From contig JAFCGA010000004.1 in NCBI GenBank assembly GCA_017608345.1, forward strand, positions 57 through 64,056: 64,000 nt of DNA, in the 5' to 3' direction. The stretch is from Candidatus Pacearchaeota archaeon (GTDB lineage Archaea; Nanobdellota; Nanobdellia; UBA10117; JAFCGA01). Position numbers and translations under genes: made by a program. Numbering within the stretch: position 1 is the first letter of the stretch; each line of letters starts with the position of its first letter. Below the pieces are notes generated by a model, which was not told where the DNA came from, ran no database searches, and saw nothing but the letters and a program-made list of their open reading frames with translations. Below are positions 29,451-58,942 of the stretch, piece after piece.

Positions 29451-29663
29451 GAATTAGATAGAGATTCTAGAGATAAAAAAGATTGTTATTCTCCAAAGAT
29501 TAGAATTTAGACTTCTTTTTACGCTTGTTCTTCAATAGTCTGTACTTGGTATGCTGCCCACCGCGAGCAGTCTTTCTTCTTGACTTCGCCACTATAAATA
29601 CCTCAATTAAGGTGTTAATGCATAATAGCAGTGCTTTTTAAATCTAACTATCTTACTATAAAC

Positions 29664-30896: not shown

Positions 30897-32054
30897 TTAT
30901 GGCCTGCCAGCGCGGCCAGTCATTTGATGATACTCTAAAACCGGTATCCAATCCGAGCCCCAGCGGCCAGAATATCGTTTCAGAGAGCTCATTATTGCTC
31001 TAAAAGCAGGCAAATTAACACCCATAGCCAAAGTAGGAGTGCAGCAAATTATCCTTATGTCCTCCCTTCTAAAAGCATCTTCGATCAGCTCTTTTTGTTT
31101 AGCAACTAATCCAGCATGATGAAAAGCTACTCCCTTTTCCAAGCAGCCAGCTAATCGATTGCATTGCTTAGTTGGTCTGGATAACGCCTTCAGGGCTTTC
31201 TCGGAGAGTTTCTCTAATCGAGGCGCCCCCACCTTGATTAGTCTACTCAATTTATCTGCGGTATTTTCAGCTGTTCTCTTAGTTGAGCAAAATATTAGCG
31301 CTTGCCTACCGAGTTTAATTGTATCTAGCGCTAGCCGGAGTGTCGGATCAGAAATAGCTCTATTTATTGCTAGATTCTCTTTTGTTTCGAAAAAATCAAT
31401 TTCTTCATCAGAAAAAATACCCTGAAATAACTGCACCGGACGCCACGTATCAGTTACTAATTCCGCACCGAGCCAATCACTTAATTCTTCTGGGTTACCA
31501 ACTGTCGCGGAGAGCGCGACGATTTGCAGCTTTTTAATTAGCTTCCGCAATAGCGTAATTACTATCTCTAGCGTCGGTCCGCGTCGGGGATCGTTCAACA
31601 AATGAATCTCATCAACAATCAGAAGACCAACTTTAGATATCCAAGACGCGCCGTGGCGAATCAAGCTATCTAGCTTCTCATTTGAGCAAATAATTACATC
31701 ATACTTTTCTAGCCAAGGATCTGCGCTGTCTAGATCACCAATACTTAATGCGACCCTCACGCCATGTTTCTCGTACTTTTTCTTAAAGTCCTTAAACTTT
31801 TCAGACGCTAGCGATTTCAGGGGAGCAGCATAAATTACTTTAGCTTTCCGAGTGAAAATCATATTAAGCAGAGCTAGCTCAGCCACCAAAGTCTTTCCCG
31901 AAGCAGTAGGAGTACAAATCAGCATACTCTTAAGCTCTAGCAAGCCAGCGTCAATTGCTTTAGATTGACAGGGGCGGAATTCCTTAATTTTCTGCTCAGA
32001 AAGAATACTCCCTAGCTTCCCAGATAATAGCATACTTCTTTCTAAGCAAGTCAA
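30897..32054 (-). CDS. Hel308/Ski2-like helicase, N-terminal RecA1-RecA2 core only; it stops right after motif VI
   Basis: It has the Q-motif/motif I region (CTPTASGKTLVAELALL), DEIH (motif II), SAT (motif III) and QMTGRAGRP (motif VI), with the stop codon immediately after. No ratchet, WH or HhH domains are encoded here. Confidence 0.8.
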   Translation of the reverse strand: MTCLERSMLLSGKLGSILSEQKIKEFRPCQSKAIDAGLLELKSMLICTPTASGKTLVAELALLNMIFTRKAKVIYAAPLKSLASEKFKDFKKKYEKHGVRVALSIGDLDSADPWLEKYDVIICSNEKLDSLIRHGASWISKVGLLIVDEIHLLNDPRRGPTLEIVITLLRKLIKKLQIVALSATVGNPEELSDWLGAELVTDTWRPVQLFQGIFSDEEIDFFETKENLAINRAISDPTLRLALDTIKLGRQALIFCSTKRTAENTADKLSRLIKVGAPRLEKLSEKALKALSRPTKQCNRLAGCLEKGVAFHHAGLVAKQKELIEDAFRREDIRIICCTPTLAMGVNLPAFRAIMSSLKRYSGRWGSDWIPVLEYHQMTGRAGRP

Positions 32055-32065
32055 TTTAAAATAAT

Positions 32066-32422
32066 TTAGTAGATATAGCCCTCAAATTCCAAGTCATTCG
32101 AAGTAAAATTAATAGAATAATTTCCTCTAAAGCCATTATAATTAACAATAGCGCATGCTAGTCCGATTCCTTGCTGAGAATACACGCTCTTAAGATGCGG
32201 GCACAAATCTGATTGCTGTGCATTAGCAACCGACCAAGTATTACGGTCTTGAATTGAGTTTTGAATATTTTTAAAATCCAAGTAGCTCGATTTTGTGAAT
32301 AACGTAACTGCAGCAGTATCAGTTGTCCTAAAAAAGCTAAACAGGACAAACATCGATAACGCTAGAAGCATTATCGCAACCATAAAAAACTGTGATTTTT
32401 TAGACTTCATAATTTCTCCCAT
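32066..32422 (-). CDS. Small pilin-like protein (putative class III signal peptide)
   Basis: MGEIMKSKKSQ is followed by a hydrophobic helix (FFMVAIMLLALSMFVLFSFF). It is the last gene of the minus-strand pilus-like cluster. Confidence 0.45.
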   Translation of the reverse strand: MGEIMKSKKSQFFMVAIMLLALSMFVLFSFFRTTDTAAVTLFTKSSYLDFKNIQNSIQDRNTWSVANAQQSDLCPHLKSVYSQQGIGLACAIVNYNGFRGNYSINFTSNDLEFEGYIY

Positions 32423-32527
32423 AAATATAATTTATATGATTCGTCCCAATCAGCCCTTTTATTTTTGCGAGTCTGTAACATAACTAATCCGTCCAAAAGC
32501 GTTGGCGGAAAATTTATAACTTCCATT
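32407..32527 (-). pseudogene. Remnant duplicate of the 3-prime end of the pilin-LamG gene
   Basis: The block TCTCCCATAAATATAATTTATATGATTCGT (32410-32440) recurs at 32535-32565 with a decaying match beyond. It encodes the same C-terminal peptide ...ESYKLYLWEKL* as gene 32528..33658. Confidence 0.4.
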
Positions 32528-33658
32528 TTAGAGCTTCTCCCATAAATATAATTTATATGATTCGTTCCATTGGCTGTTTCCGCGAGTGTAAGTAGTACTG
32601 ATAATATCATTATTAGTCGTTGCAGTAATAGCGGGACAATTAATACCTTGATTAACTAATCCGCTGTAATCTCGCCAAATCTCATCTGCAGTCAGAGCGC
32701 GATCAAATACCCAGAGCTCATCAAGAGTGCCATTTAGTGTAATCAACGACGCGTTATTATATCTGCCAATCATAAACGGCGCTGTATTCGTCAGACGTGG
32801 CCCGACAAAGGTATCATTTTCTCGCTCAATCCCATTAACATATATTCTAATATCTGTCCCAGATACAGTTCCCGCAACATGGCGCCATTCATTATATGGA
32901 AAATCAATTGAGCTCTGCGCAAAGTTACTCCCGCTCGCTGTCCCATTTCCTAAAAATAGCAGCGGCTTTTGAGGATCAGCCCATGAGCCTTGCGCAAAAT
33001 AATAAGGAGTTTGAGGAAATACTCCTGTGCCTTTAGAAATAATTGACGGTGAATACACCGCGCCCTTTCCTTTATCTCTTATCCATGCTACAAAACTAAG
33101 ATCTCCGACAAAATCAAAATCAGGATCATTAGTGCAATTAATCCAATCATCTACGCCATCAAAGTCTGCTCCGGAGTTAAATTTCCCCGAGCTTGTAAAC
33201 GAAGCACCATTAACAAAAGTACAATTATGTCCATTCCCAGAGGAATCACAGATATCTTTTCCATCCGCACAAGAATTGTCTGCTCCTTCATCCATATTCC
33301 ACATAGCCACAGTATTTGCATCCATCACTAACCCTGCGGAGGAATTTATAATATAGCAATCAGAATCACGATAGTATTGTACTTCGAAGCCAACTGTGTT
33401 TGGTAAGCTAGCTTTAAGATGCTCGTCTAGCTCTTCGAATGCCCTTCCGTCAGTCATTATCCTATCGAGAGCTCCACTCGCATCGAGATTGTTGAGTATA
33501 TTCCACGCTTCGTCACGTAGCGTAGTTAATTCGCTCTTTGTGTCTGTGGCTTGATCAGAATACAAGAACCCAACAACAAACACCAATACAATTATCGCAG
33601 TAATAATTATCTCGATGAAATACACGAACCCGGTCTTATCTTCAAACATCCTTACCAT
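32528..33658 (-). CDS. Pilin-like protein fused to a LamG/concanavalin-like domain
   Basis: The N-terminal TM segment (FVYFIEIIITAIIVLVFVVGFLY) is followed by a LamG domain (NEWRHVAGTVSG...LNGTLDELWVFDRALTADEIW). Confidence 0.6.
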   Translation of the reverse strand: MVRMFEDKTGFVYFIEIIITAIIVLVFVVGFLYSDQATDTKSELTTLRDEAWNILNNLDASGALDRIMTDGRAFEELDEHLKASLPNTVGFEVQYYRDSDCYIINSSAGLVMDANTVAMWNMDEGADNSCADGKDICDSSGNGHNCTFVNGASFTSSGKFNSGADFDGVDDWINCTNDPDFDFVGDLSFVAWIRDKGKGAVYSPSIISKGTGVFPQTPYYFAQGSWADPQKPLLFLGNGTASGSNFAQSSIDFPYNEWRHVAGTVSGTDIRIYVNGIERENDTFVGPRLTNTAPFMIGRYNNASLITLNGTLDELWVFDRALTADEIWRDYSGLVNQGINCPAITATTNNDIISTTYTRGNSQWNESYKLYLWEKL

Positions 33659-34524
33659 ACTTTAAGATTAATTTCCGCGGGGAAAGCCTCCGAATTGCTA
33701 TAAATAATTCTTCTCCGAGATACTCCGCAAAGCGGCTTGCTCAACAAATGCTCTGTCGATCCAAATGTGGAATATACATCAGTATGATTTCCAAAATATA
33801 AAGGATAAGTTTTACCAGTGTCTAATCCGATTTGATTAACTGCAAGTATATAGATTAATGAGGAAGCATTAATCGATGAAATGGACGCGCAATCATGGTC
33901 TCCGCTGCTAAAAGTCCAATTAAGAGAAACTTCTGCACCTCCGCTTGTGTTTTTTATTCCAAGTGCTTCTCCAGCTTCAAGAGCGCCTGCCGGACAGTTA
34001 GAAATCACTGGATTCGCGTATGGAAAAAACAAAGTCAGCTTAAGTTTAGATAAAGTATCTGCACTTCCAGCAGAAATATTAATCGCGTCTGAGGATCGAA
34101 CAATAAAAACTTTTGGAGAGCTGTCATTTGGATATTGCGGAACAGGATCAGTAGTTAAATTAAAAGCGTAAATATTATACGCTAAATTAAATGATCGATT
34201 AAGCGCGATTGCGGTGGAAATATTATAATAACCTCTCGTAGTCATTGCTTGCCACTTTGAATAATTTACACCTGCGCTTGAAGAGTCAGAGCTAGCCAGC
34301 CCCAATCGCCTTAGCGATCCCGCAGATTCCCACGTGCTAGGATCTCCGGGAAAATCTAAAAAGGCAAGAGCTGCGCTTTCAGCTTCAGAACATAATTCCA
34401 ATTCTCTAGTGCTAGAAATCTCCTCAGGAAGCCTATCGAAATAAGCGAACAAAAGATACATTACGATTATCACAAATAGAAGTATAGCAATTATATATTC
34501 AACTAAGGATTGTGCACGCTTCAT
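33652..34524 (-). CDS. Type IV pilin-like protein (class III signal peptide)
   Basis: MKRAQSLVEYIIAILLFVIIVMYLLF is a prepilin-like N-terminus with Glu at about +5. Confidence 0.55.
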   Translation of the reverse strand: MKRAQSLVEYIIAILLFVIIVMYLLFAYFDRLPEEISSTRELELCSEAESAALAFLDFPGDPSTWESAGSLRRLGLASSDSSSAGVNYSKWQAMTTRGYYNISTAIALNRSFNLAYNIYAFNLTTDPVPQYPNDSSPKVFIVRSSDAINISAGSADTLSKLKLTLFFPYANPVISNCPAGALEAGEALGIKNTSGGAEVSLNWTFSSGDHDCASISSINASSLIYILAVNQIGLDTGKTYPLYFGNHTDVYSTFGSTEHLLSKPLCGVSRRRIIYSNSEAFPAEINLKVW

Positions 34525-36630: not shown

Positions 36631-37806
36631 CTATTTAACAATTATATCTTCGGTTACTGTCTCTGTTTCTTTCTTATATGTAGCAGTTATTATTATACTA
36701 TATTTCCCGCCAGTCATCGGAGCTTCGATTATGTCTTTAAACTCTCCAACATTATCCGTGAATAGCTTATGCGTTTCGCCAGTTGGAGTGAGTATATCCA
36801 CGGTTGCGCCTACTGCTGCTGAAGATTCAAAGAATACTTTTCCAGCAATATTTATCTTCGCACCGGGATTCGGGCTCGGTGGATATATTGCTACCTCCAG
36901 ATTCAGCTGAGACGGGATTATGAATATTGAGAAGAAGAAAATGCCTACTGCAAACATGACTACGATGTGCTTTACACCGGCGATTAATTTCTCCTCTGCA
37001 ATTACTCCGGCAATCAATCCTGCGCAAATTGACTCTACAATAGTCATAATTAAAAACAGATTCTTAAAGTAGCCGACAGTCATTTGACCGCCTTCAATCC
37101 CCTGAAGCGATATTCCGCTAAATATACCTAGCTTTTGGATGAAAATAATCGGAGCGAGGATTTTATAGACACCAATTATTACACCAATAAAAATAAAGTA
37201 GATTAAGTACATTACAATTATTTGCTGATGCATAATTGATTTTTTCTCAGCCTCTAATTGTTTTAATATGCTAACATTATCAGATAACGATCCTAGAGTA
37301 GTTTTAATATCGCCGCCGCTGTGATATGCTTCAAGAATAATATTGTTTATTCGCGTTATTAATGCACTCCGAGACAGAGTTTTAGTAAATCTATTCCACG
37401 CTTTTGGGAAGGGCACATCCCAAGATAACCAAATATTTAATTTGTCAACATAACTCGATAATACATTGTATTTTGTCTTAGCACAGGTATCAACTGCTTG
37501 CGGAATCGTCATCCCAGCAGATACAGACTGCGACATATCTCTCAAGAAATTAGGATAATTATTCTCAGCTTTCTTTATCTCCTGAAATTCTAAGAAATTA
37601 AAAATCAGATAAGGAAGAGCAACAATAATTAGCCCCAGTGCAAATAGAGTAATTATTACTGTTGTGTTAACTTCTAGCACATACGAAATTATTGCAGTTA
37701 TAAATGGTATTGGGAGGGTTAGAAGTAGCACAAATACTTTCCTTTTTCTAAGCCCAAGTACTTCTTTTTCCCAAAATGATTTCTTGAATATATCTATTCC
37801 GACCAT
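36631..37806 (-). CDS. TadC/FlaJ-like (GspF-family) polytopic membrane protein with an extra C-terminal extracellular beta-sandwich domain
   Basis: It has multiple TM helices and a T2SS-F-like organisation. It overlaps the upstream paralog by 13 nt. Confidence 0.6.
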   Translation of the reverse strand: MVGIDIFKKSFWEKEVLGLRKRKVFVLLLTLPIPFITAIISYVLEVNTTVIITLFALGLIIVALPYLIFNFLEFQEIKKAENNYPNFLRDMSQSVSAGMTIPQAVDTCAKTKYNVLSSYVDKLNIWLSWDVPFPKAWNRFTKTLSRSALITRINNIILEAYHSGGDIKTTLGSLSDNVSILKQLEAEKKSIMHQQIIVMYLIYFIFIGVIIGVYKILAPIIFIQKLGIFSGISLQGIEGGQMTVGYFKNLFLIMTIVESICAGLIAGVIAEEKLIAGVKHIVVMFAVGIFFFSIFIIPSQLNLEVAIYPPSPNPGAKINIAGKVFFESSAAVGATVDILTPTGETHKLFTDNVGEFKDIIEAPMTGGKYSIIITATYKKETETVTEDIIVK

Positions 37807-38711
37807 GGTGATAAACTCTTAATTAATATTATGAATAGGGCAGTTAAGCCAGGAAGCCCGGCAAAGATGACGAGGTATTGTATAAATTTAACCATTGCTA
37901 CGGACATGCCACCCACAGTTACCATTAATGAGGAGATTATTATAAAAAAGACTATTCCGACTATAACTAAAGTAATATACATATTCATAAATAGCGAGAG
38001 GATATTACTGAAATCTGAGAGTTTTCGCTTATAATCTGCGATGAATCCTTTTGATTTCTCTTCCAAGTACTTTCCAATATCTCCGCCAGCAGTTATTGAG
38101 TTTTTTAGACCCGCTAGCAATTCAGTCCAGTTTAATGATGGTGAGCGTTTCATGGCTCGCTCTAGTGCAGATGGCAAATCTAATCCAAGAACATGAATAT
38201 CACTGCTGATTTTATCTGCTTCTTCAGATACAACGTTATAATGCTTAAATCGAGATAGCATCTTAAACATTGTTTGCGGCGGTAATCCTGAACGAATAAT
38301 AGTGGATAAGTATAAAGTCGCAAAAGCAAGACTATTGTCTAATTTAGCGCGGCGGTCGCTAATCATAAAATTAGGATATAAATAAATAATTACTCCAACA
38401 AGTATGCTAACTAAAATTGCTATCATTAGATAGACAAATATGAGGTGTGCTTTGATTCCATAAATTGCTGATCCGAAAGCTAACAGAAAAACAAACGTTA
38501 CAAATAAAGTCAGAAATGAGGAAAATATAATGAATGAGCCATACTTAATTCCAGTGGTACTTATTCGCGCTATCCTTAACTTCTTGTCGAAATTATCATA
38601 AATCGGGAGCTTTTTAGCAACCGAAGAAAATATAGCATTTGAGAAAGAATAGATATCTTGCCCTTCGAATTTCTTTACATCCTTGTCTTTCTTTTTTTTA
38701 GCTGCCTTCAT
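37794..38711 (-). CDS. TadB/FlaJ-like (GspF-family) polytopic membrane protein
   Basis: It has TM helices flanking a cytoplasmic domain and lies immediately downstream of the secretion ATPase. Confidence 0.6.
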   Translation of the reverse strand: MKAAKKKKDKDVKKFEGQDIYSFSNAIFSSVAKKLPIYDNFDKKLRIARISTTGIKYGSFIIFSSFLTLFVTFVFLLAFGSAIYGIKAHLIFVYLMIAILVSILVGVIIYLYPNFMISDRRAKLDNSLAFATLYLSTIIRSGLPPQTMFKMLSRFKHYNVVSEEADKISSDIHVLGLDLPSALERAMKRSPSLNWTELLAGLKNSITAGGDIGKYLEEKSKGFIADYKRKLSDFSNILSLFMNMYITLVIVGIVFFIIISSLMVTVGGMSVAMVKFIQYLVIFAGLPGLTALFIILIKSLSPWSE

Positions 38712-38712
38712 A

Positions 38713-40428
38713 TCATTTTCCCATATAATTCGCTAGCTGCCTAGGATTACGATAGTACATATTAATAAACTGAGCAACTTGGCTGAACTGGTAGTTTCCT
38801 TTTGATTTTAGCCAATCTAAAATATTTACTCTTCTTAGAATTTCATCTTGTACATCTTTATCATTCCATCCTTGCCGCTCTGCTAACTGCTTAAGTATAT
38901 AACTATCTGCAGGAATAAATGTATCCTTAACTGGGTCTCTCTTGAATACAACGTGAGTATTAAGTGACTTATTTTTGTTATTATAGCCCTCTATTTCAAT
39001 GACACTGCCAACACGTCGGATAAACTTGCCTTCCTTCTTAACTTTCTCAAGAAATACAATAATATCGAGATTCTCCAGCAAGGATAACGGTAAATTTATT
39101 GGTCGTGTAGTAAGACGATCAATAATCGCTCCAACAGTATCTGCGTGCAAGGTTGATAATCCCGGATGTCCTGTACTCATTGCATGGAAAAGTACGTTTG
39201 CTTCTCTGCCCCTAACCTCGCCGACAATTAGATAATCTGGACGCTGCCTAAGTGCAGCTTTAAGGAGGGTATCCATATCCACTTGACCGTATCCGCCAGG
39301 GCCTACGCCAGCTCTCGTTACTTGTGGCATCCAATTTATATTCATAAGTTGAATTTCCGCGGTGTCTTCGATAGAAACTATCTTCAGATTTGGGTCAATG
39401 AACATCGCTAGCACATTTAGAAAAGTCGTTTTACCTGTAGCAGTTGTTCCAGAGATTAGGATGGATTTCTCCTTCTCAATAGCAAGCCAGAGGTATGCAA
39501 GTATCATCGAATCAACAGTTCCAAAGTTCATAAGATCAACAGGAGTAAGCGGAGTTCTGAAGAATTTTCTTATTGTAAAATTAGATCCCTTACGCGCGAT
39601 GTCTGTGCCATAAGTTATCTGAACTCTTGATCCGTCAGGTAAGCTACCATCCATTAGCGGCTCTGCAACGGAAATAGTCCGCTTGCATTTCTGAGCTAAT
39701 TTAATTGCAAAGGAATCTAGGTCTTCTCGCTCCGTGAATTTTACATTTGTCGGGATTTCTCCATATATGGGGTTTCTATGAAACACAAATATTGGTAAAT
39801 TTACGCCGTCACAAGAAATATCCTCGATGTTTGGATCATGAACTAGCGCATCTATTTGATCAAGTCCGATTACCCGCCGAAATATATAATATTTTGCGGT
39901 TAATATTTCCTGATTTGTGAGTCTTGCACCGAGTTCTTTCCATATTTTCTCTATTTTTTTATCAATATAAGTGTATACTGCATCTTTCGCGCGTAATTTA
40001 TTAAAGTTAATTTCTAAGCTATCATGAAGTTCCTCAAGCGTTCGGTGAATCAGTTTTTGCAGTTTCGGACTTATCTGCGGCTCAATTAGATTATAAATCA
40101 ATTGATTATTCCGAGCATCGAATTTGATTCTAGCATGGGCTAGCGGAATTAGCTGATCTTTAACACGCAGAGTAGTCAAAGGATAAGTTTCATCAACAGT
40201 TCTTAATTTCTCATGATAGTCAATCTTACTAGATACTACTCCTTCTCGACTAGCTGGAATCGCGATTCTAGAAACTACCTGAGTGGTATTTTCTTCGACA
40301 GGTGGAGCAGTCTTGACTACCCTCTGCTTGGGTTGCTCTTCTTTTTTCGGCGGCGCTTCTAACTTAGGACTATCTGATAACTTATTTAATTTCGATTTTA
40401 TTTGCTTGAGAAATTCTTTTCTACGCAT
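38713..40428 (-). CDS. FlaI/TadA/VirB11-family type IV pilus/archaellum assembly ATPase
   Basis: Walker A (GTTATGKTT), Walker B and the His box are present, and the 571-aa protein has an N-terminal extension. Confidence 0.9.
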   Translation of the reverse strand: MRRKEFLKQIKSKLNKLSDSPKLEAPPKKEEQPKQRVVKTAPPVEENTTQVVSRIAIPASREGVVSSKIDYHEKLRTVDETYPLTTLRVKDQLIPLAHARIKFDARNNQLIYNLIEPQISPKLQKLIHRTLEELHDSLEINFNKLRAKDAVYTYIDKKIEKIWKELGARLTNQEILTAKYYIFRRVIGLDQIDALVHDPNIEDISCDGVNLPIFVFHRNPIYGEIPTNVKFTEREDLDSFAIKLAQKCKRTISVAEPLMDGSLPDGSRVQITYGTDIARKGSNFTIRKFFRTPLTPVDLMNFGTVDSMILAYLWLAIEKEKSILISGTTATGKTTFLNVLAMFIDPNLKIVSIEDTAEIQLMNINWMPQVTRAGVGPGGYGQVDMDTLLKAALRQRPDYLIVGEVRGREANVLFHAMSTGHPGLSTLHADTVGAIIDRLTTRPINLPLSLLENLDIIVFLEKVKKEGKFIRRVGSVIEIEGYNNKNKSLNTHVVFKRDPVKDTFIPADSYILKQLAERQGWNDKDVQDEILRRVNILDWLKSKGNYQFSQVAQFINMYYRNPRQLANYMGK

Positions 40429-40938: not shown

Positions 40939-41547
40939 TTAATTCATGTCTACAGTTATGATTTGTCGGTAACTCGTTGTGCAGCTTCCGATTGCAGAGG
41001 TATTTGTCTCTTTGAAAGTTAAAAGTACCGTATGACTCCCAGAACCGACCATCGCATTATCTCCTGGTGTTAAGAAAATACCATGACACTCATTATTAGC
41101 TGTGTCATTAAGGTTTATGTATTTCAGTTCTAATTCTATGCTGCCTTTCTCAATTAAACAACCTGCTTCATCAGTTCCAAGAGTTCCGAACAGTGTCGAA
41201 TCCATGCAAGGTCCGGATTCATTTTTATTGCCTGCTAATACTCTTTCACTACTTACTAATTGATCTGGCAAGTCCATATATGCGGAATAAGTTATTGTTC
41301 GATCATTTGCTAAATATAATTGTCCCTTCTTAATGTCAAAAGGAACAGTTCTCTGAGATTTCTCATTTGCTACATCTCGAATAGCATTGTTTAAAGCTAA
41401 CATTCTGTTTTCTATTCTTTTAACTTCAGCCACGTTGTTAATTTTATCTATCTGCGGCTTAGCCCAGAAGAAGCTTATGCTGACGATTGCTATTACAATT
41501 AATGTTAATAAGACGAATCCGACTACTTCTGCCTGGGCTTTTCTCAT
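40939..41547 (-). CDS. Pilin-like protein
   Basis: MRKAQAEVVGFVLLTLIVIAIVSISFFW is a class III signal peptide-like N-terminus. Confidence 0.55.
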   Translation of the reverse strand: MRKAQAEVVGFVLLTLIVIAIVSISFFWAKPQIDKINNVAEVKRIENRMLALNNAIRDVANEKSQRTVPFDIKKGQLYLANDRTITYSAYMDLPDQLVSSERVLAGNKNESGPCMDSTLFGTLGTDEAGCLIEKGSIELELKYINLNDTANNECHGIFLTPGDNAMVGSGSHTVLLTFKETNTSAIGSCTTSYRQIITVDMN

Positions 41548-41582: not shown

Positions 41583-43055
41583 TTAAGAGAGAATCCACGT
41601 TTCTCCATTACGACTACTTGCGTCTTGACCACCAAATAAAAGTATTTTATTGGTATTCTGTATAGACGCCATTGAATGAAAATACCTTCCGTCAGGTAAA
41701 TTCGATAGTTTTATTTCAGTCCAGCCATTAGAACTAACATCATATAGCCAAGTGTCATCGGCATAAGTTCCACTAGCATCTCCGCCAAATACTACTATTT
41801 TATCTGTATTGGATATAGTAGCTAATTGATGACCTTGCCTTTCAGTAACTGAGTATGCGGGATTTTTGTTGACCCAGATATTATCACTTAAGTCATATAT
41901 CCACGTCTCAGCATCATAACCCCAACTATCTATACCGCCAAATAACAAAATCTTATCCTCAGAATATATTACTGACATTGCATGTGCATATCTAGCTCCA
42001 GGACTTGTACTTGGAGCCATATTAGTCCAGATGTTGTCGCTCAAGTCATATATCCACGTGCCATTACAGCTATTTGAACCTGAACCGTCGCAGTTGCCGC
42101 TTCCATCTGAGCCGCCAAAAAGAATTATTTTGTCATCGCCGTAAACCGTCGCAAGCGCGGATCCCCCTCTAGCAGTTAGACCGATAGCGGTGGTTCCTTG
42201 AGTCCAGGTGTTGTCGCTTAAGTCATATATCCAAGTTCCATTACATCGACTATTTCCTGAACCGTCGCAGTTGCCGCTTCCATCTCGTCCCCCGAAGAAA
42301 AGTAATTTATCTGTTGAGTAAATATTTGCCGCAGCACCTTGGTATCTTGCACTAAATCCAACAGCAGTAGTTCCTTGGGTCCAGGCATTATCACTTAAAT
42401 CATAAATCCAAGTTCCATTACATAGACTACTTCCTGAGCCATCGCAGTTGCCGCTTGCGTCATCCCCACCAAATAACACTATTTTATCATCAGCAGACAT
42501 TGAAGCCATTGAATGATACATTCTAGCGCTAGGTTTAGTTGCGATAATCTTCTCTTCCCAAACATTCGATTGTATACCTGCAATAAATGCCGTATACACA
42601 GAATCATCGCCAAATGCGAAGTAGGCATCATATTTCATACCTTTTTCTAAATTAGCGCAATCTGTACCACCCAAATCAAGATTGATTAATTTAATTTCTC
42701 CCACAGATAAGTCAAACGGACAATTATCACACGTATCGCTATTGAACGAAGCCGTACATGAACCGCCCTGATTGGAAAGTATAACCAAATCGCCAATGTC
42801 CCCAAGAGCTTTTAATTCTCTGGTTCCCGCGTTCTGAATAACGATCTCCAAAGTAGCAAGCTTTAACTTGTGCTCTATTGTTTTTATCTCAATATTCCCT
42901 GCAGCTTTATCTAGCACTTGAGAATGAGATCTCTCGGTGCTCGCTTGAAGCTCACCTTGAACTTTTATTGCCCAATAATAAGCCGCAGTAGCTATAGCAA
43001 TAGTAATCATAATTACTAAGATTAGCGCAAGAATAAGACTTACTCCTTTCTTCAT
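41583..43055 (-). CDS. Type IV pilin fused to a Kelch-type beta-propeller (paralog 4)
   Basis: MKKGVSLILALILVIMITIAIATAAYYWAIKVQGELQ (KG cleavage-site-like) is followed by six to seven repeats of FGG.DGSGNCDGSG...CNGTWIYDLSDN.WT. Confidence 0.75.
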   Translation of the reverse strand: MKKGVSLILALILVIMITIAIATAAYYWAIKVQGELQASTERSHSQVLDKAAGNIEIKTIEHKLKLATLEIVIQNAGTRELKALGDIGDLVILSNQGGSCTASFNSDTCDNCPFDLSVGEIKLINLDLGGTDCANLEKGMKYDAYFAFGDDSVYTAFIAGIQSNVWEEKIIATKPSARMYHSMASMSADDKIVLFGGDDASGNCDGSGSSLCNGTWIYDLSDNAWTQGTTAVGFSARYQGAAANIYSTDKLLFFGGRDGSGNCDGSGNSRCNGTWIYDLSDNTWTQGTTAIGLTARGGSALATVYGDDKIILFGGSDGSGNCDGSGSNSCNGTWIYDLSDNIWTNMAPSTSPGARYAHAMSVIYSEDKILLFGGIDSWGYDAETWIYDLSDNIWVNKNPAYSVTERQGHQLATISNTDKIVVFGGDASGTYADDTWLYDVSSNGWTEIKLSNLPDGRYFHSMASIQNTNKILLFGGQDASSRNGETWILS

Positions 43056-43095
43056 AATTAAATTAGAGAATACATATATATAAAACTACTCCGGG

Positions 43096-44526
43096 TCAAT
43101 AATATATCCAAGTATCATTTATGTCCTCGATGATATATTTGCCGCCAAAAAATAGTACTTGCTCTGAGTCGCCGATTTCAGTTAGAGAATGACTATCCCT
43201 ATTGCTAGGGCTATTTATGGGTGATTTCTTTGTCCAAGTATTATCACTTAAGTCGTAAATCCAGGTTCCACCTTCGAATTGCTCGGTATATCTCCCGCAA
43301 AACATAACTATTTTATCTGTACTGTAAAGTGAAGCCATATCATGCTCATAAATTGGTCCAGGCCCATGGCTTAGCTTTCGTGTCCAAGTATCATCGCTAA
43401 GATCATAGACCCAAGTATCTTGATAAATTCCTGCGCCATAGCCACCGTGTAAAAGAACCTTATCCTCGCTAGACATAAAAGTCATAGCGTGATCCGTTCT
43501 AGCAATTAAAGAAGTAGGAGTAGTTCCTTGGATCCACGTATTGTCGCTTAGATCATATATCCAAGTTCCATTGCAATAATTACTCCCCGAGCCATCACAA
43601 TTGCCACTAACAAAATCCTCTCCACCAAATAACAAGACTTTATCTGTATTGTATATCCTTGCCATAGAGTGCCCTCGCCTAGCTCCGGGATTTACTCCTG
43701 GAAGCATATTTGTCCAGGTGTTGTCGCTTAGATCATATATCCAAGTTTCTGCATTTAGCGTACCGTCCCAGCCACCAAACATTAAAACTTTATCATTATC
43801 ATAAATCATTGCACTTGCGTGTTTCGAGCGATTAGATGGCGAAGTGGTTACATTCTTCTGAGTCCAACTATCTTCGCTTAGATCATACATCCAAGTATCT
43901 TGGTAATAAGGACTTCCAGCACAATTACTACAATCTCCACCAAAAAGAACGACCTTATCTGTTCGATATATATTTGCAAAACTATGGTCGCTTCTAATCG
44001 AGGGAGCATTAGCTGGATTCTTTTTTTCCCAAACATTAGTTTTTGAGATCGGAACAAAATTAGTCTGAGCATGTACTTCAGAGGATCCAAAATAAATAGA
44101 ATATTCCGTTCCTATTTCTAAGTTAGCGCAATCAGTACCGCCAAATAATAGATTCATAGTAATTATCTCATTAACATCTAAAGCTATAGGGCAAACATCG
44201 CAAGTAGAAGAATTAAACGGGAGACTACAAGAAAAGCTGCCTGAAGAGATAACTAATGTATCTCCAGCATCACCAATCTGCTCAATCTTTCTGCCTCCAG
44301 AATTTTCAAGGACTATTTTAACATTGTCAGTATTAATATTATAATTAATATTAACTATATTTAATTCTCCAACTACTCTATCTGAAAATTTATCCTGACT
44401 TTCATCACCGGCTCCTTGCATCTGTCCTTGAATCTTCATTATCCAATAAAAAGCTGATGCGGAGATAGCTAGAGTCATCATAATTATCAAAACCAATGCA
44501 ATAACATTACTTATAGCTCGCTTCAT
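43096..44526 (-). CDS. Type IV pilin fused to a Kelch-type beta-propeller (paralog 3)
   Basis: The N-terminus is MKRAISNVIALVLIIMMTLAISASAFYWIMKIQGQMQ, followed by repeats of VLLFGG...TWIYDLSDNTWT. Confidence 0.75.
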   Translation of the reverse strand: MKRAISNVIALVLIIMMTLAISASAFYWIMKIQGQMQGAGDESQDKFSDRVVGELNIVNINYNINTDNVKIVLENSGGRKIEQIGDAGDTLVISSGSFSCSLPFNSSTCDVCPIALDVNEIITMNLLFGGTDCANLEIGTEYSIYFGSSEVHAQTNFVPISKTNVWEKKNPANAPSIRSDHSFANIYRTDKVVLFGGDCSNCAGSPYYQDTWMYDLSEDSWTQKNVTTSPSNRSKHASAMIYDNDKVLMFGGWDGTLNAETWIYDLSDNTWTNMLPGVNPGARRGHSMARIYNTDKVLLFGGEDFVSGNCDGSGSNYCNGTWIYDLSDNTWIQGTTPTSLIARTDHAMTFMSSEDKVLLHGGYGAGIYQDTWVYDLSDDTWTRKLSHGPGPIYEHDMASLYSTDKIVMFCGRYTEQFEGGTWIYDLSDNTWTKKSPINSPSNRDSHSLTEIGDSEQVLFFGGKYIIEDINDTWIYY

Positions 44527-44558
44527 AGTTTAAATATAATTCAAAGATATTTAAGGGT

Positions 44559-45995
44559 TTAGGAATAAATCCAAGTGTCGTCAGTTCTACCTGCAGCAGT
44601 CTGCCCGCCAAATAATAAAATACTCTCTGTTTCGTCGATTGTAGCCATTGCATGGCTGTACCTTGCAAGAGGATACTTAGGGATACTCTTTCGAGTCCAA
44701 TAATTACGACTATAATCATAGATCCAAGTCTCACTATTACTAGGACCATCCCATCCCCCAAAGAGCATATTTTCATCTGCTCCATCGATTGTAGCCATTG
44801 AATAATCTAATCTTGCACTTGGACTACTTGGGGGGATCATTTGCGTCCATGCATTATCGCTATAGTCATACACCCACGTAAACCCACAAAGATTAGATCC
44901 AGAGCCCTCACAGGGGAAAGTACCAAATCCGCCAAGTAGTAAGATTTTGTCGGTTCCATCGATTGTAGCCATTGCATGTCGCTCTCTCGCAATTGGACTA
45001 CTCGCAGGAGTTATATTTATCCAAAAATTATCGCTATAGTCATAAATCCAAGTTTCATCATCCAACGCACCATCATTTCCACCGAATAATACAAATTTAT
45101 CAGTTTTATATATTGCAGTTAGAGCAGGGTAATTTCTTGCACTCGGACTACTCGCGGGATTCATTTGTGTCCATGCATTATCGCTATAGTCATAAATCCA
45201 AGTCTCATTATTCCGCGTGCCATTATAACCACCAAATAATAATACTTTATCTGTATTATATAACTTAGAACTTGCGAATTGGTCTCGTGCAGTAGGATGA
45301 ACTGCTGGATTCATATTTATCCAATTATTATCACTTACATCAAATACCCACGTTCCACTGCAGAAGCTACTTAATGAACCATCACAATTACCGCTTCCAT
45401 CCCATCCCCCAAATAGAACGACTTTATGGATTCCACTTATCGTCGCCATTGAGTGGCGTATTCTGGCACTAGGCTTATTCGGTGGATTCAGTTGTACCCA
45501 TTGATTACTTTTCGTATCTGCTACAAACGAAGTATATACTCTATCTGAACCTAATGAGAAGTAAGCATTATATTGCATTCCTCGCCTTAAATCCTGACAA
45601 GCAGACCCATCAAAATCAATAGTTATAGATTTTACTGCACCCACACCAAGGTCAAAGGGGCATTCCGCGCAATAAGTAGAATTAAAACCAAGCGTGCAAG
45701 AATGCACATCGCTAGCAATTGTAAGCAAATCTCCGATATCTCCGATTCCTTTGAGCTCTCTAGTACCAATATTTTGAATAACTAGCTGAATATTTGTAAG
45801 AGTTGAACTATGTTTTAGACTTTTTACTTCAATTTCTCCACTGACGTCAGATAGTGTCTCTATTTGAGATCGCTCTGCTCCTGCTTGAACTTCTCCCTGA
45901 ATCTTTATACTCCAATAATAAGTCGAGGCGGCTACTACAATTACTATCATTATTACTAAAACCATCGCAAGAATTATACTTACACCCCGCTTCAT
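44559..45995 (-). CDS. Type IV pilin fused to a Kelch-type beta-propeller (paralog 2)
   Basis: The N-terminus is MKRGVSIILAMVLVIMIVIVVAASTYYWSIKIQGEVQ, followed by repeats of LLFGG...ETWIYDYSDN.WT. Confidence 0.75.
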   Translation of the reverse strand: MKRGVSIILAMVLVIMIVIVVAASTYYWSIKIQGEVQAGAERSQIETLSDVSGEIEVKSLKHSSTLTNIQLVIQNIGTRELKGIGDIGDLLTIASDVHSCTLGFNSTYCAECPFDLGVGAVKSITIDFDGSACQDLRRGMQYNAYFSLGSDRVYTSFVADTKSNQWVQLNPPNKPSARIRHSMATISGIHKVVLFGGWDGSGNCDGSLSSFCSGTWVFDVSDNNWINMNPAVHPTARDQFASSKLYNTDKVLLFGGYNGTRNNETWIYDYSDNAWTQMNPASSPSARNYPALTAIYKTDKFVLFGGNDGALDDETWIYDYSDNFWINITPASSPIARERHAMATIDGTDKILLLGGFGTFPCEGSGSNLCGFTWVYDYSDNAWTQMIPPSSPSARLDYSMATIDGADENMLFGGWDGPSNSETWIYDYSRNYWTRKSIPKYPLARYSHAMATIDETESILLFGGQTAAGRTDDTWIYS

Positions 45996-46042
45996 AATTT
46001 AGTTAGGTTCTAGAATTATTTAAGAGTTGCTCTTCACCGATA

Positions 46043-47473
46043 TCAAACATAGATCCAAGTTTCATCACTCTTATTCCCAGTATATCCGCCGAAGAGTAGA
46101 ACTTTATCTGTTCCATCAATAGAAGTCATAGCATGAAGTTCTCTATCTTTTGGTTTGTCTCTCGGAACCTTTAGACTCCAGGTAGAACCACTATAATCAT
46201 ATAGCCAGGTCTCATCATCTCGAGTATTTCCAGAAAGTCCACTGAAAAGTAAGATTTTGTCTGTTCCGTCGATTGTAGCCATTGCATGATTTTGTCTACC
46301 TCTCGGCCGGATAGCTGTATTGACTTGAGTCCATGTATTGTCACTTAAATCATATACCCACGTTTCATCTAAATATCCGGAAGCAGGACCATTTCCGCCA
46401 AATAAGAGTATTTTATCTGTTCCGTCGATTGTGGCCATTGCATGGGCTTGTCTAGCACTTGGGCTAATTGCGGGAGTTACATTATACCAATTATTATCTG
46501 TATAATTATAAACCCAAGTCTCATCATTCTCAGTAAACCCTGGGTTCTGTCCGCCGAAGAGCAATATTTTATCTGTTCCGTCGATTGTGGCCATTGCATG
46601 GTAATCTCGTATACTTGGACTGCTTGCTGGAATCATTAAATTCCACGTATTAGCACTTAAATCATATAACCAGGTACCGTTGCAGTAAGAATTACCAGAT
46701 CCATCACAGTTTCCGCTTCCATCGAATCCGCCGAAGAGCAATATTTTATCTATCCCGTCAATTGTAGCTATCGAATGACCATACCGAAGACTAGGAGCTA
46801 CTAAGAGTGATAGATTTGTCCAGTTATTTTCACTGTGATCATATATCCACGTCTCATTAACGTAAGACGCACCAGGATTACCACCAAATAAAAGAACTTT
46901 ATCTGTTCCATCTATTGCAGCCATTTTATGTGTATATCTTCCCGTAGGACTATTGCGCGGAGTCATTAAAGTCCAGGAATCATAAATAGCAACCGGAACA
47001 AACGAGGTTTTAGCACTACTATCAGATAAAGCAAAGTATGCACTATACTCAAATCCTTCCCGTAAATTAGAACAGTCAGAACCAATAAAATCTAAGCTTA
47101 GTTTTCTAATCTCTCCAACTTCTAAATCAAACGGACAACTATCACAAGCTGAGGAATCAAAAGAAATATCACAAGAGAATCCTGGCTTAGAAATAACAAT
47201 TGTATCTCCAACAGAGCCGATCCGCTCTATTAATCTACTCCCTGAATTTTCCATGACTATTCTAGCAGTATCAGTATTAACATTATACTGAATATCAACG
47301 ATACTTAGCTCTCCAGTCACCTGCCTTCTTATCCCCGCTTGAGCCTCACTGCTACCCGCATACATCTGCCCCTGAATCTTCATTATCCAATAAAACGCTG
47401 ACGCCGCAATTGCTAGCGTCATCATTATGATAAGAACTAAAGAAATAACCATACTAACTCCGCGTTTATTCAT
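46043..47473 (-). CDS. Type IV pilin fused to a Kelch-type beta-propeller (paralog 1)
   Basis: The N-terminus is MNKRGVSMVISLVLIIMMTLAIAASAFYWIMKIQGQMY, followed by repeats of AMATIDGTDKILLFGG...ETWVYD.SDN.W. Confidence 0.75.
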   Translation of the reverse strand: MNKRGVSMVISLVLIIMMTLAIAASAFYWIMKIQGQMYAGSSEAQAGIRRQVTGELSIVDIQYNVNTDTARIVMENSGSRLIERIGSVGDTIVISKPGFSCDISFDSSACDSCPFDLEVGEIRKLSLDFIGSDCSNLREGFEYSAYFALSDSSAKTSFVPVAIYDSWTLMTPRNSPTGRYTHKMAAIDGTDKVLLFGGNPGASYVNETWIYDHSENNWTNLSLLVAPSLRYGHSIATIDGIDKILLFGGFDGSGNCDGSGNSYCNGTWLYDLSANTWNLMIPASSPSIRDYHAMATIDGTDKILLFGGQNPGFTENDETWVYNYTDNNWYNVTPAISPSARQAHAMATIDGTDKILLFGGNGPASGYLDETWVYDLSDNTWTQVNTAIRPRGRQNHAMATIDGTDKILLFSGLSGNTRDDETWLYDYSGSTWSLKVPRDKPKDRELHAMTSIDGTDKVLLFGGYTGNKSDETWIYV

Positions 47474-56502: not shown

Positions 56503-56841
56503 ATGCAAGTAGCTATTTTAACTAAGCTGGAAGACGGTTCGTTTAAACCGCAAAAAGTAGAAATTGAGAGTGAATTATCTGCAAGAACTATGTTGACCTC
56601 TCCTGAGAAATTCTTTGTGTGTACAAAATCGTGTAACGGAACGTATCATCCAGTATTTAGCGAACTTTCGGGTATTTTAGCTGAACATAAAAAGCAGCCG
56701 AATGGACTATCACGAACAATAATTAACAAGCTTGGACTAGATGAAGATCTGCACGGAAAGCGGTTTGTTGTTTTCGCTAACGGAAAAGAAGTGCACTTAC
56801 TCGGCGATGTGGTCACTGCGTCTAAGAAGCTAAGTAAGTGA
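56503..56841 (+). CDS. Hypothetical protein
   Basis: This 112-aa ORF has no recognised motifs. Confidence 0.4.
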   Translation: MQVAILTKLEDGSFKPQKVEIESELSARTMLTSPEKFFVCTKSCNGTYHPVFSELSGILAEHKKQPNGLSRTIINKLGLDEDLHGKRFVVFANGKEVHLLGDVVTASKKLSK

Positions 56842-56888
56842 CTTTGTTCTGAACAATTCTTTTTATACGCTATCCTTCGAATAATTAT

Positions 56889-57953
56889 ATGACTGAAAAG
56901 TATGGCGAAGCTATCTCCATAGCAAAAAGCGAGAGCGAAAAAAAGTTCATCTATGAGCATTATATCTGTGGAGAGCCAGAGGAGATTGTTTCTAAGCTAG
57001 CTGTTGAGCCGGTGCTTCGTTCTGCGATTTTATCTTTAATATCTGCTGGATTTGTTCGAACGGAAGCGGAATTGTTAGAATTCTTTGAGTCTACGTTCTA
57101 CGGCCATCAGTACAAAGATGATTTTGGCTTGATGGTTAAGATCTCCGATGTTGTTAAGTTGCTTGCGCTTTACGAATTTATTCTGGTTGTTGGCAAAAAG
57201 CTAGAGCCGACGCGGTTGGGTAAAAGAGTCTCTGAACTTTATTTAGATCCAAATTCAGCATTTCATATGATTCGGCACTTTAAGAAAGCAACTAGCGGAG
57301 GTGAGGTTTTCTCTTATTTAAATCTGATTTCAAATACTGTTGAGATGCGTCCGTTGCTTAGACTCCGCAAGGGAGATGGGGACTGGATCCAAGAGGAGCT
57401 GGCGGAAAAGGAAGATATTATTTTTGAGAGGATTCCGAAAGAGTGGGAGGTTGAATTTGGAGAATTTATCAATTCTTTCAAGACTGCATTGCTTTTGGAG
57501 GATTGGATAAGCGAAAAATCAGAGGAGTTTATCTTAGATAAATACGACCTCCGACCGGGCGGAGTTCACGTTAAGATTGCTAATGCTAAATGGCTGCTTT
57601 ATTCTGCGTCTGAGCTGGCTAGGCTTTTAGAGCTGCGAGAAGTTCAGAACAAAGTTAGGGAAACGCTAGTTAGAGTTCAGCATGGAATCAGAACTGAATT
57701 ACTTGCTCTGGTTAAATTGCGAGGAATCGGTAGATGGCGAGCTAGGAAGCTGTTTTCTAAAGGATTTAAGACGATCAAAGATCTAAAAGCTGCAGATGTT
57801 TCAGAATTAGCGCAGCTAATTGGTTCTAAGAATGCTATTAATGTTAAAGAACAGCTCGGGCAGAAGGTTAAAAACATTAGAACGGTTAAGAAGATTATTG
57901 AGAAGAAAGAAATGGTTAAAAAGGGACAAGTTGACTTAACTGCGTGGAGTTAA
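56889..57953 (+). CDS. Hel308-type helicase C-terminal domains (WH, ratchet and helix-hairpin-helix) encoded as a stand-alone gene
   Basis: LEPTRLGKRVSELYLDP matches the Sec63/ratchet motif (TELGR..S.LYIDP), and LVKLRGIGRWRARKLFSKGFKTIKDLKAADVSEL is a near-canonical Hel308 domain-5 HhH (GIGRVRARKLYEAGF...). Confidence 0.6.
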   Translation: MTEKYGEAISIAKSESEKKFIYEHYICGEPEEIVSKLAVEPVLRSAILSLISAGFVRTEAELLEFFESTFYGHQYKDDFGLMVKISDVVKLLALYEFILVVGKKLEPTRLGKRVSELYLDPNSAFHMIRHFKKATSGGEVFSYLNLISNTVEMRPLLRLRKGDGDWIQEELAEKEDIIFERIPKEWEVEFGEFINSFKTALLLEDWISEKSEEFILDKYDLRPGGVHVKIANAKWLLYSASELARLLELREVQNKVRETLVRVQHGIRTELLALVKLRGIGRWRARKLFSKGFKTIKDLKAADVSELAQLIGSKNAINVKEQLGQKVKNIRTVKKIIEKKEMVKKGQVDLTAWS

Positions 57954-58048: not shown

Positions 58049-58942
58049 ATGGAAAAAGAGATTCTAGATAAGTACATCAAAGCAGGCAACATAGTTAAAA
58101 AAGTCAAAGAATATGCTAAAACGCTTGTTAAAGATGGAGCGCTAGCTGTTGATGTTGCTGATAAAGTTGATGCGAAGATTGTAGAGCTAGGCGGAAAGCC
58201 AGCTTTTCCAGCCGACATTTCAATAAACGAGATTGCTGCTCACTATTGCCCAAGATTTAAGGATAAGCTAGTTATCAAAAGCGGAGACTTGGTTAAGGTA
58301 GATTTAGGAGTTCATATTGATGGTTATTTAGTTGACACTGCGATATCCATCTCGGCGGGCAAGAATGCTGGGAATGAAGAATTAATAGCGGCTGCGCATG
58401 CTGCTTTATCTATTGGGATTAAAACTGCTAAGCCAGGCGTGCAAGTAAGAGAGATTGGCAAAGCCATTCAGGAAGAGATTTCTCGGCGCGGCTTTCAAAC
58501 TATTCGCAACTTATCGGGCCACGGCGTAGATCAATGGGTCGTACACACCTCGCCGACAATCCCTAACTTTGACAATGGCGACAAACGCGAGCTAAAAGAA
58601 GGGGACATAATTGCTATCGAGCCTTTTCCGTCAACTGGCGAGGGCATTGTAGTCGAGGGCAAGGATTCTGAAGTCTACGAAGTAGTCAGCGAAGGCAACA
58701 TAAGAACTGGCCGAGATGTTTTGGAATATGTTTTCGAAGAATTTGAAACTCTACCCTTCTGCAAAAGACAATTAATAAATAAGTTCGGCGCTCTGAAGGC
58801 TCCGCTAGCGATTAAGCAGATGCTTTCTTCAGGGATTATTAAAGAATTTAAAGTATTGAGAGAGAAAAATCAAAATAGTAAGGTTGCTCAAGCTGAGCAC
58901 ACTTTAATAATACAAGAAAAAGGAAATAAAATACTAACGTAG
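58049..58942 (+). CDS. map: Methionine aminopeptidase, type 2 (archaeal)
   Basis: The 297-aa protein has the pita-bread fold motifs (DLGVHIDGY, ISGHGV, EPF), and its length is typical of archaeal MetAP2. Confidence 0.85.
   Translation: MEKEILDKYIKAGNIVKKVKEYAKTLVKDGALAVDVADKVDAKIVELGGKPAFPADISINEIAAHYCPRFKDKLVIKSGDLVKVDLGVHIDGYLVDTAISISAGKNAGNEELIAAAHAALSIGIKTAKPGVQVREIGKAIQEEISRRGFQTIRNLSGHGVDQWVVHTSPTIPNFDNGDKRELKEGDIIAIEPFPSTGEGIVVEGKDSEVYEVVSEGNIRTGRDVLEYVFEEFETLPFCKRQLINKFGALKAPLAIKQMLSSGIIKEFKVLREKNQNSKVAQAEHTLIIQEKGNKILT

Follow-up and report, generated by a model that had tools for sequence, protein, structure and literature searches.

A Hel308 Gene Split in Two

The window, meaning the whole 64-kb stretch of DNA that was analyzed, carries Hel308 as two ORFs, one at 30897..32054 on the minus strand and one at 56889..57953 on the plus strand, with a gap of 24.8 kb between them. 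This bears out a sequence-only reading of the same DNA, which had recognized a Hel308 divided into two genes some 25 kb apart on opposite strands. The minus-strand gene (hereafter the N-half) encodes RecA1 and most of RecA2. Its product is 385 aa long if translation begins at TTG 32054 and 378 aa if it begins at ATG 32033; the ATG is preferred by databases and by relatives, the annotated form being P0121, and is likely the true start. All the expected motifs are present, namely I (PTASGKT), II (DEIH), III (SAT), IVa (FHHAGL), V (TPTLAMGVNLPA) and VI (QMTGRAGRP), and the C-terminus, ...EYHQMTGRAGRP, is followed by TAA at 30897-30899, immediately after motif VI. The plus-strand gene (hereafter the C-half) encodes a protein of 354 aa made up of the terminal strand and helix of RecA2 and the winged-helix, ratchet (domain 4) and HhH (domain 5) domains. 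It contains both EPTRLGKRVSELYLDP and GIGRWRARKLF, the two motifs from which it had been taken to be the missing C-terminal part.

Profile and structure-based alignments agree on how the two products fit together. In the 739-position NCBIfam model of Hel308, PRK02362, the N-half accounts for positions 8-382 (E 3e-131) and the C-half for 386-720 (E 1e-85), and on Pyrococcus furiosus Hjm (PDB 2zj2) they cover residues 10-372 (E 1.6e-97) and 376-704 (E 1.8e-48), with 38-39% identity to solved Hel308/Hjm proteins. By both alignments the halves are exactly complementary parts of one Hel308: no residue is missing, repeated or extra, and no other family gives the C-half a better match. Their summed length of 732-739 aa agrees with the figure of about 739 given earlier, and tblastn found no further Hel308-like sequence within the 64-kb window. 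Pfam assigns DEAD (RecA1, E 4.4e-33) and Helicase_C (RecA2, E 2e-11) to the N-half, and to the C-half PF21280 Helicase_dom4_arc, the seven-helix bundle of the ratchet (E 6e-32, profile positions 2-125 of 125), and HHH_5 (domain 5, E 5.3e-9, residues 273-323). The match of HTH_61 to the winged helix is weak (E 3.5e-4, 21.3 bits against a cut-off of 24.3); this region also aligns to 2zj2, is modelled with pLDDT >90 and matches the solved structures.

Taken together, the pair has RecA1, RecA2, winged helix, ratchet and HhH in the domain order of Hel308. The equivalog cut-off of PRK02362 is 887 bits, and at 439 bits (N-half) and 289 bits (C-half) neither half nor their sum reaches it; where the family has a single chain of ~700 aa scoring at that level, the window has two genes. 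Membership of the Hel308/Hjm family holds for the pair only, as a two-chain version, with 3′-5′ DNA helicase and ATPase activity predicted from the sequence. A TATA-like box (TTTTTATA, 56860..56867, plus strand) lies ~25 nt 5′ of the C-half ATG and after the stop codon of the upstream ORF (56839-56841). This placement suggests an independent, near-leaderless transcription unit, and on the evidence of the TATA-like hexamer the C-half gene appears to have a separate promoter; in L001, a related locus, the box and the ATG have homologs. Rfam and tRNA scans of the window gave no matches.

The Break Falls Within RecA2

In P. furiosus Hjm, RecA2 is domain 2 and occupies residues 198-399; the winged-helix domain starts at residue 400 (PMC2636818). 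The break in the window maps to Hjm 372|376, ~27 residues short of the end of RecA2, and because this position lies within domain 2 the RecA2 fold is divided between two proteins. Its last strand and helix, ~27-38 residues, are encoded on the C-half, whose first ~39 codons (56889..57005, plus strand) align to Hjm 376-399 plus the linker. The earlier description of the N-half as two RecA domains ending directly after motif VI is thus correct as to the stop, which follows GRAGRP, but not as to the domains, since RecA2 is incomplete without the start of the C-half.

The N-half (from M8) was joined to the C-half and modelled with AF2; the resulting model has a pLDDT of 89.8 and a pTM of 0.85, and superposes on 2zj2, 2zj8, 2p6r and 2va8, over the full length of these structures, with TM scores of 0.84-0.93. 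Its junction, 378|379, falls in the loop that connects the motif-VI helix to a β-strand. This strand (residues 383-389, YGEAISI of the C-half) and the helix that follows (393-404) are modelled with pLDDT 90-94, and the winged helix begins at ~418. For the C-half modelled alone, confidence is high from residue ~40 onward, but residues 1-40 drop to pLDDT 45-74 and no longer form the strand. The RecA2 segment is nevertheless among the most conserved parts of the C-half, with G6, E7, A8, A12, Y25, G28 and E31 invariant. As the joined model was built on an alignment of fused homologs, it indicates compatibility with fold complementation and is not proof of assembly.

Conservation of the Break in Relatives

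The same break, after motif VI (hereafter type B), recurs in about 10 protein clusters per half, drawn from independent NCBI, JGI, ENA and Logan assemblies of Woesearchaeota and Nanoarchaeota. Relatives of the C-half (P0002-P0011; 336-346 aa, 46-78% identity) all begin with a sequence resembling M(x)EKYGEAISIA, and every type B C-half start follows the pattern M(x)1-5(K/R)(Y/F/H)GEA. Relatives of the N-half (P0122-P0125 and P0127-P0130; 371-380 aa, 59-75% identity) all end with GRAGRP and a stop codon. Two of the clusters, P0125 and P0006, were each found on 3 contigs from different projects. The DPANN affiliation proposed for the window from its sequence matches these sources, and DPANN archaea are known to have split protein genes (PMC6349945).

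Both halves are under constraint. In the pair L002 and L003, where synonymous sites are unsaturated, dN/dS is 0.062 for the N-half and 0.058 for the C-half. Between the window and L001 pS is saturated, and pN is 0.18 (N-half) and 0.15 (C-half), similar to the neighbouring M24 (0.18) and CDC48 (0.11) genes. Judged from these substitution rates, purifying selection is acting on both halves. The two occur together in 5/5 assessable genomes or contigs, namely the window, L001, L002, L003 and the MAG GCA_964528765.1 (contigs L010 and L086). Three features by which split genes are recognized in DPANN genomes are found here: complementary parts of a gene that is fused elsewhere, a conserved split, and purifying selection on both parts. 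A further one, physical assembly of the parts into an active enzyme, is predicted, with indirect evidence from the models.

Arrangement of the Halves in Related Genomes

In L001, whose proteins are about 75% identical to those of the window, the halves lie on one strand 298 bp apart, in the gene order a-b-c-N-(30-aa ORF)-C-M24...CDC48. In the window, the genes upstream of the N-half (118, 376 and 290 aa; 32066..34524, minus strand) keep the order of genes c, b and a of L001. Directly 3′ of the C-half is an M24 methionine-aminopeptidase-like gene (58049..58942, plus strand), which is its neighbour in L001 also (69% identity), and CDC48 (82% identity) lies downstream of M24 in both. Because M24 and then CDC48 are shared, the C-half block is syntenic with that of L001. 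The window thus retains the blocks a-b-c-N and C-M24...CDC48, inverted relative to each other by comparison with L001. A conserved, highly basic micro-ORF of 30 aa (MAKSRRKTARGGQHTKYRLLKNKRKKKSKF; 29500..29592, minus strand) has a homolog at 2927-3019 of L001 with 24/30 residues identical. It lies between the Hel308 halves in L001 and on the N-half side in the window, and since it stayed with the N-half the rearrangement breakpoint can be placed between the micro-ORF and the C-half promoter. Neither the micro-ORF nor the 112-aa and 118-aa neighbours have a match in Pfam; the micro-ORF could be an unannotated small ribosomal-type protein.

Other relatives show different spacing. In L002 and in L003, a 919-kb Woesearchaeota chromosome, four genes separate the halves, encoding CTP_transf_1-like, CDP-OH_P_transf (CDP-alcohol phosphatidyltransferase), PHP and CarS-like proteins, the last two on the opposite strand. 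A PHP gene also adjoins the N-half of the window, as one lies near the N-half in L002 and L003. In GCA_964528765.1 the N-half (L010) and the C-half (L086) are on separate contigs. The relatives thereby provide a dated series of split-gene drift, from adjacent to interrupted to inverted and dispersed.

Several further features of these loci were observed. The L001 spacer contains, at 3030-3200, a 40-aa ORF (MEKYGEAISIAKSEAEKKLIYEKYI...) that repeats the promoter, start codon and 25 initial codons of the C-half before diverging; the full C-half, whose ATG is at 3193, lacks its own TATA-like box. This repeat is either a true duplication or an assembly quirk. In L002 a free-standing 181-aa LAGLIDADG_3 ORF (5194-5739) lies directly 3′ of the C-half and is absent from that position in L003, a locus 90% identical. 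A link between it and the endonucleases of the motif V inteins of Hel308 was rejected: its match to the L068 intein is weak (E 1.8e-4), too little to give the ORF a part in the fission. The 25 kb between the halves of the window holds ordinary chromosomal genes, including a glycosyltransferase, TruD and a type-IV-pilus-like cluster with a T2SSE ATPase (38713-40428), two T2SSF proteins (36631-38711) and a DUF7289 pilin-like protein (40939-41547), beside which are four tandem Kelch-repeat β-propeller paralogs of 476-490 aa (41583-47473, minus strand). Elsewhere in the window, 204-24839 on the plus strand is a single ORF of 8211 aa with many repeated matches of ~30% to a Laminin_G_3/Disaggr_repeat protein of 4936 aa or more, encoded on the Woesearchaeota contig L004.

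Fused and Split States Within One Phylum

To survey the architecture of Hel308, species-representative genomes were scanned and then classed with tblastn and ORF extension. The gene is fused, at 706-744 aa, in the nearest Woesearchaeota, Nanoarchaeota and Pacearchaeota (L006-L009 and L011-L019; 54-63% identity), and every other archaeal phylum in the sample has the fused form too, making 60+ archaeal species representatives. The sequence-only reading had asked whether related genomes have the fused gene or the same split, and both states occur. Among the species representatives the type B break was found in L010. A second and far commoner fission, type A (>100 clusters per half against about 10), leaves RecA1 alone (~220 aa) and a RecA2-winged helix-ratchet-HhH protein (~505-550 aa), with the break in the short variable linker after RecA1. 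RecA1-only genes were found at L075, L076, L081, L083 and L084 and in >100 clusters (P0242-P0354), and proteins running from the start of RecA2 to the HhH domain in >100 clusters (P0012-P0120); L004 and L005 are further type A loci. Such pieces are labelled only “DEAD/DEAH box helicase” or “helicase-related protein”. The partner piece was not found within 10 kb at 7/7 type A loci, and the records of P0344 and P0098 share no genome; from matching taxonomy, abundance and complementary boundaries we infer that the two pieces co-occur in a genome. L075 and L081, which carry RecA1-only Hel308 of Woesearchaeota type (62-63% identical to the window), are titled “uncultured Methanosarcinales archaeon”, and these bins are probably mislabelled or contaminated.

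Trees were built by crude neighbour-joining with bootstraps (own numpy implementation), and their deep nodes are weak (20-65%). The window groups with L001 and P0123 (100%), L002 and L003 with P0127-P0130 (100%), and both groups together at 53-65%. Type A C-parts form a separate group (69%), so that types A and B look like independent fissions. The type B pair L010/L086 groups with the fused genes L006 and L007 (100%; 69-72% identity), so that either the break after motif VI has more than one origin or re-fusion has occurred. The fused genes nearest to the split clade (L006, L007, L017, L019 and P0126) have an atypical linker, GRAGRP-G(R/K)xxxEG(L/Y)A, where P-(K/D)(Y/F)Dxx-GEA is usual, and in those closest to L010/L086 the junction reads GRAGRP-GRGVEEGLA in place of the usual P-KYDxxGEA. 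This linker would fit a secondary re-fusion of formerly separate halves.

A broader proposal can be drawn from these patterns, in which Woesearchaeota Hel308 is a modular helicase that has been broken at two or more places and has repeatedly passed between fused and split forms at one intra-domain site. As a general account it is doubtful. If it were true, the site after motif VI would be a naturally permissive point of fold complementation in SF2 helicases, and separate expression of the N (motor) and C (ratchet/brake) subunits could regulate the helicase through subunit stoichiometry.

A Probable Two-Subunit Helicase

With a motor domain divided between two chains, how would a working helicase be obtained? 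The cut lies inside one motor domain, and the two proteins therefore most likely must associate to work. The window probably encodes a two-subunit Hel308 (Hjm) that arose by gene fission and is assembled non-covalently after translation, assembly and helicase activity being predicted from sequence and models. Fission would have occurred in an ancestor within the Woesearchaeota, of which relatives still have the fused gene; the halves would initially have lain close together on one strand, with insertions and an inversion later producing the 25-kb, opposite-strand layout. Start and stop codons are present in each gene separately, and the two chains would bind non-covalently once translated. Subunit N (378-385 aa) would be the ATPase motor, comprising RecA1 and RecA2 through motif VI, and subunit C (354 aa) would supply the final RecA2 strand and helix and then the winged-helix, ratchet and HhH domains. 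With its first ~38 residues, subunit C would complete the RecA2 fold of subunit N, and its winged helix and ratchet would pack on both RecA domains to form a closed ring through which single-stranded DNA is pulled.

The products might instead be functionally independent: the N-half would then be a minimal two-RecA motor, acting by itself or with a different partner, and the C-half a stand-alone DNA-binding, ratchet or brake factor. In the window the genes are indeed unlinked, sit on opposite strands and are probably transcribed separately, and several genomes have the halves dispersed; moreover, the winged helix, ratchet and HhH are modelled confidently without the N-half, and domain 5 of Hel308 has been described as a deletable autoinhibitory brake (PMC2636818; PMC13623763). 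However, the N-half has an incomplete RecA2, and the ~38-residue piece that it lacks is carried by the C-half, strongly conserved and confidently structured only beside the N-half. The halves also co-occur in every genome that could be assessed, their dN/dS values are equal and low, and neither has gained a new domain. Independent action, which the sequence-only reading had offered for the C-terminal protein, is for these reasons disfavoured and quite improbable.

Association of two separate subunits also has to be weighed against covalent rejoining, whether by a split intein, as in the DNA polymerase of Nanoarchaeum equitans, or by RNA trans-splicing, as in its tRNA halves. Inteins do occur in Hel308 of close relatives: a LAGLIDADG intein is inserted in motif V in the Woesearchaeota proteins P0132 and P0134, and in a Micrarchaeota genome (L068, about 10990-12370). 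Trans-spliced tRNAs, for their part, are known from DPANN archaea (PMC3655853). However, motif V (TPTL|C...HN|S), where the relatives have their inteins, is ~45 residues upstream of the break. At the break itself there are no extra residues: the N-half ends GRAGRP, and in the C-half 4 residues precede the conserved YGEA. Pfam gives no intein match for either half, and a split intein was rejected on these three counts. Trans-splicing through complementary flanks was rejected likewise, as the duplex energy between the 3′ flank of the N-half and the 5′ flank of the C-half is no better than that of shuffled sequences in five genomes (z -1.0 to +1.05). Covalent rejoining is thus highly improbable. 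An assembly or sequencing artefact (frameshift or misjoin) or a decaying pseudogene, which the metagenome-assembled origin of the contig and the odd partial repeat of the C-half 5′ end in the L001 spacer might suggest, is effectively refuted, because the identical stop after GRAGRP and the identical start recur in about 10 clusters from independent assemblies, the ORFs are intact with all motifs and a dN/dS of about 0.06, and a one-base frameshift would not account for the presence of a stop codon, an ATG and intergenic sequence with a TATA-like box.

Significance and Comparison with Known Systems

The two natural cuts, one within RecA2 and one in the RecA1/RecA2 linker of sister lineages, offer a natural test of which breaks an SF2 helicase tolerates and of the cohesion of its domains, and the split bears on the separate supply of motor and regulatory modules. 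Hel308/HELQ, a conserved repair helicase, serves both as a structural model for Pol-theta and as a nanopore motor. For DPANN genomics, a widespread split gene is recognized whose parts are annotated “DEAD/DEAH box helicase”, “helicase-related protein” or “hypothetical protein”, and annotation and completeness estimates should count both halves as one Hel308.

Split genes are already known in DPANN archaea, and Hel308 is an apparently undescribed example. A split Hel308 is not described in a survey of the archaeal Ski2-like family (PMC10946056), a survey of archaeal gene fusion and fission (PMC11237513), a 2026 review of HELQ/Hel308 (PMC13623763) or a 2026 preprint on complete Nanobdellota genomes (bioRxiv 10.64898/2026.05.13.725050), nor was one found in full-text literature searches. 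What is distinctive is that the cut lies inside a RecA domain, and that two types of fission occur together with fused genes within one phylum.

Compared with archaeal Hel308/Hjm proteins of solved structure (2ZJ2/2ZJ8, 2P6R and 2VA8), the window version has the same five domains and motifs in the same order, but is encoded by two unlinked genes, with the chain cut inside domain 2 after motif VI. Type A fission also concerns Hel308 in this phylum, again with dispersed halves, and differs in its break site, the RecA1/RecA2 linker. The nearest precedents, Lhr and reverse gyrase, are both listed in PMC3655853, Table 1. In the Nanoarchaeota, Lhr (“large helicase-related protein”) is split into NEQ003/NEQ409 in N. 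equitans and Nst1_172/239 in Nst1, at sites that differ between the two (PMC3655853, Table 1). Like Hel308 it is an SF2 repair helicase made from two DPANN genes, and its differing split sites parallel types A and B. Lhr belongs, however, to another helicase family and its split is found in hyperthermophilic Nanoarchaeota, whereas the split Hel308 is from Woesearchaeota. In the reverse gyrase of N. equitans the split separates whole functional modules, one helicase-like and one topoisomerase. This enzyme (NEQ318/NEQ434), the halves of which are thought to be assembled post-translationally (PMC3655853, PMC6349945), is another nucleic-acid enzyme that includes a helicase-like module and is split in nature. 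In the Hel308 of the window, by contrast, the cut passes through a RecA domain.
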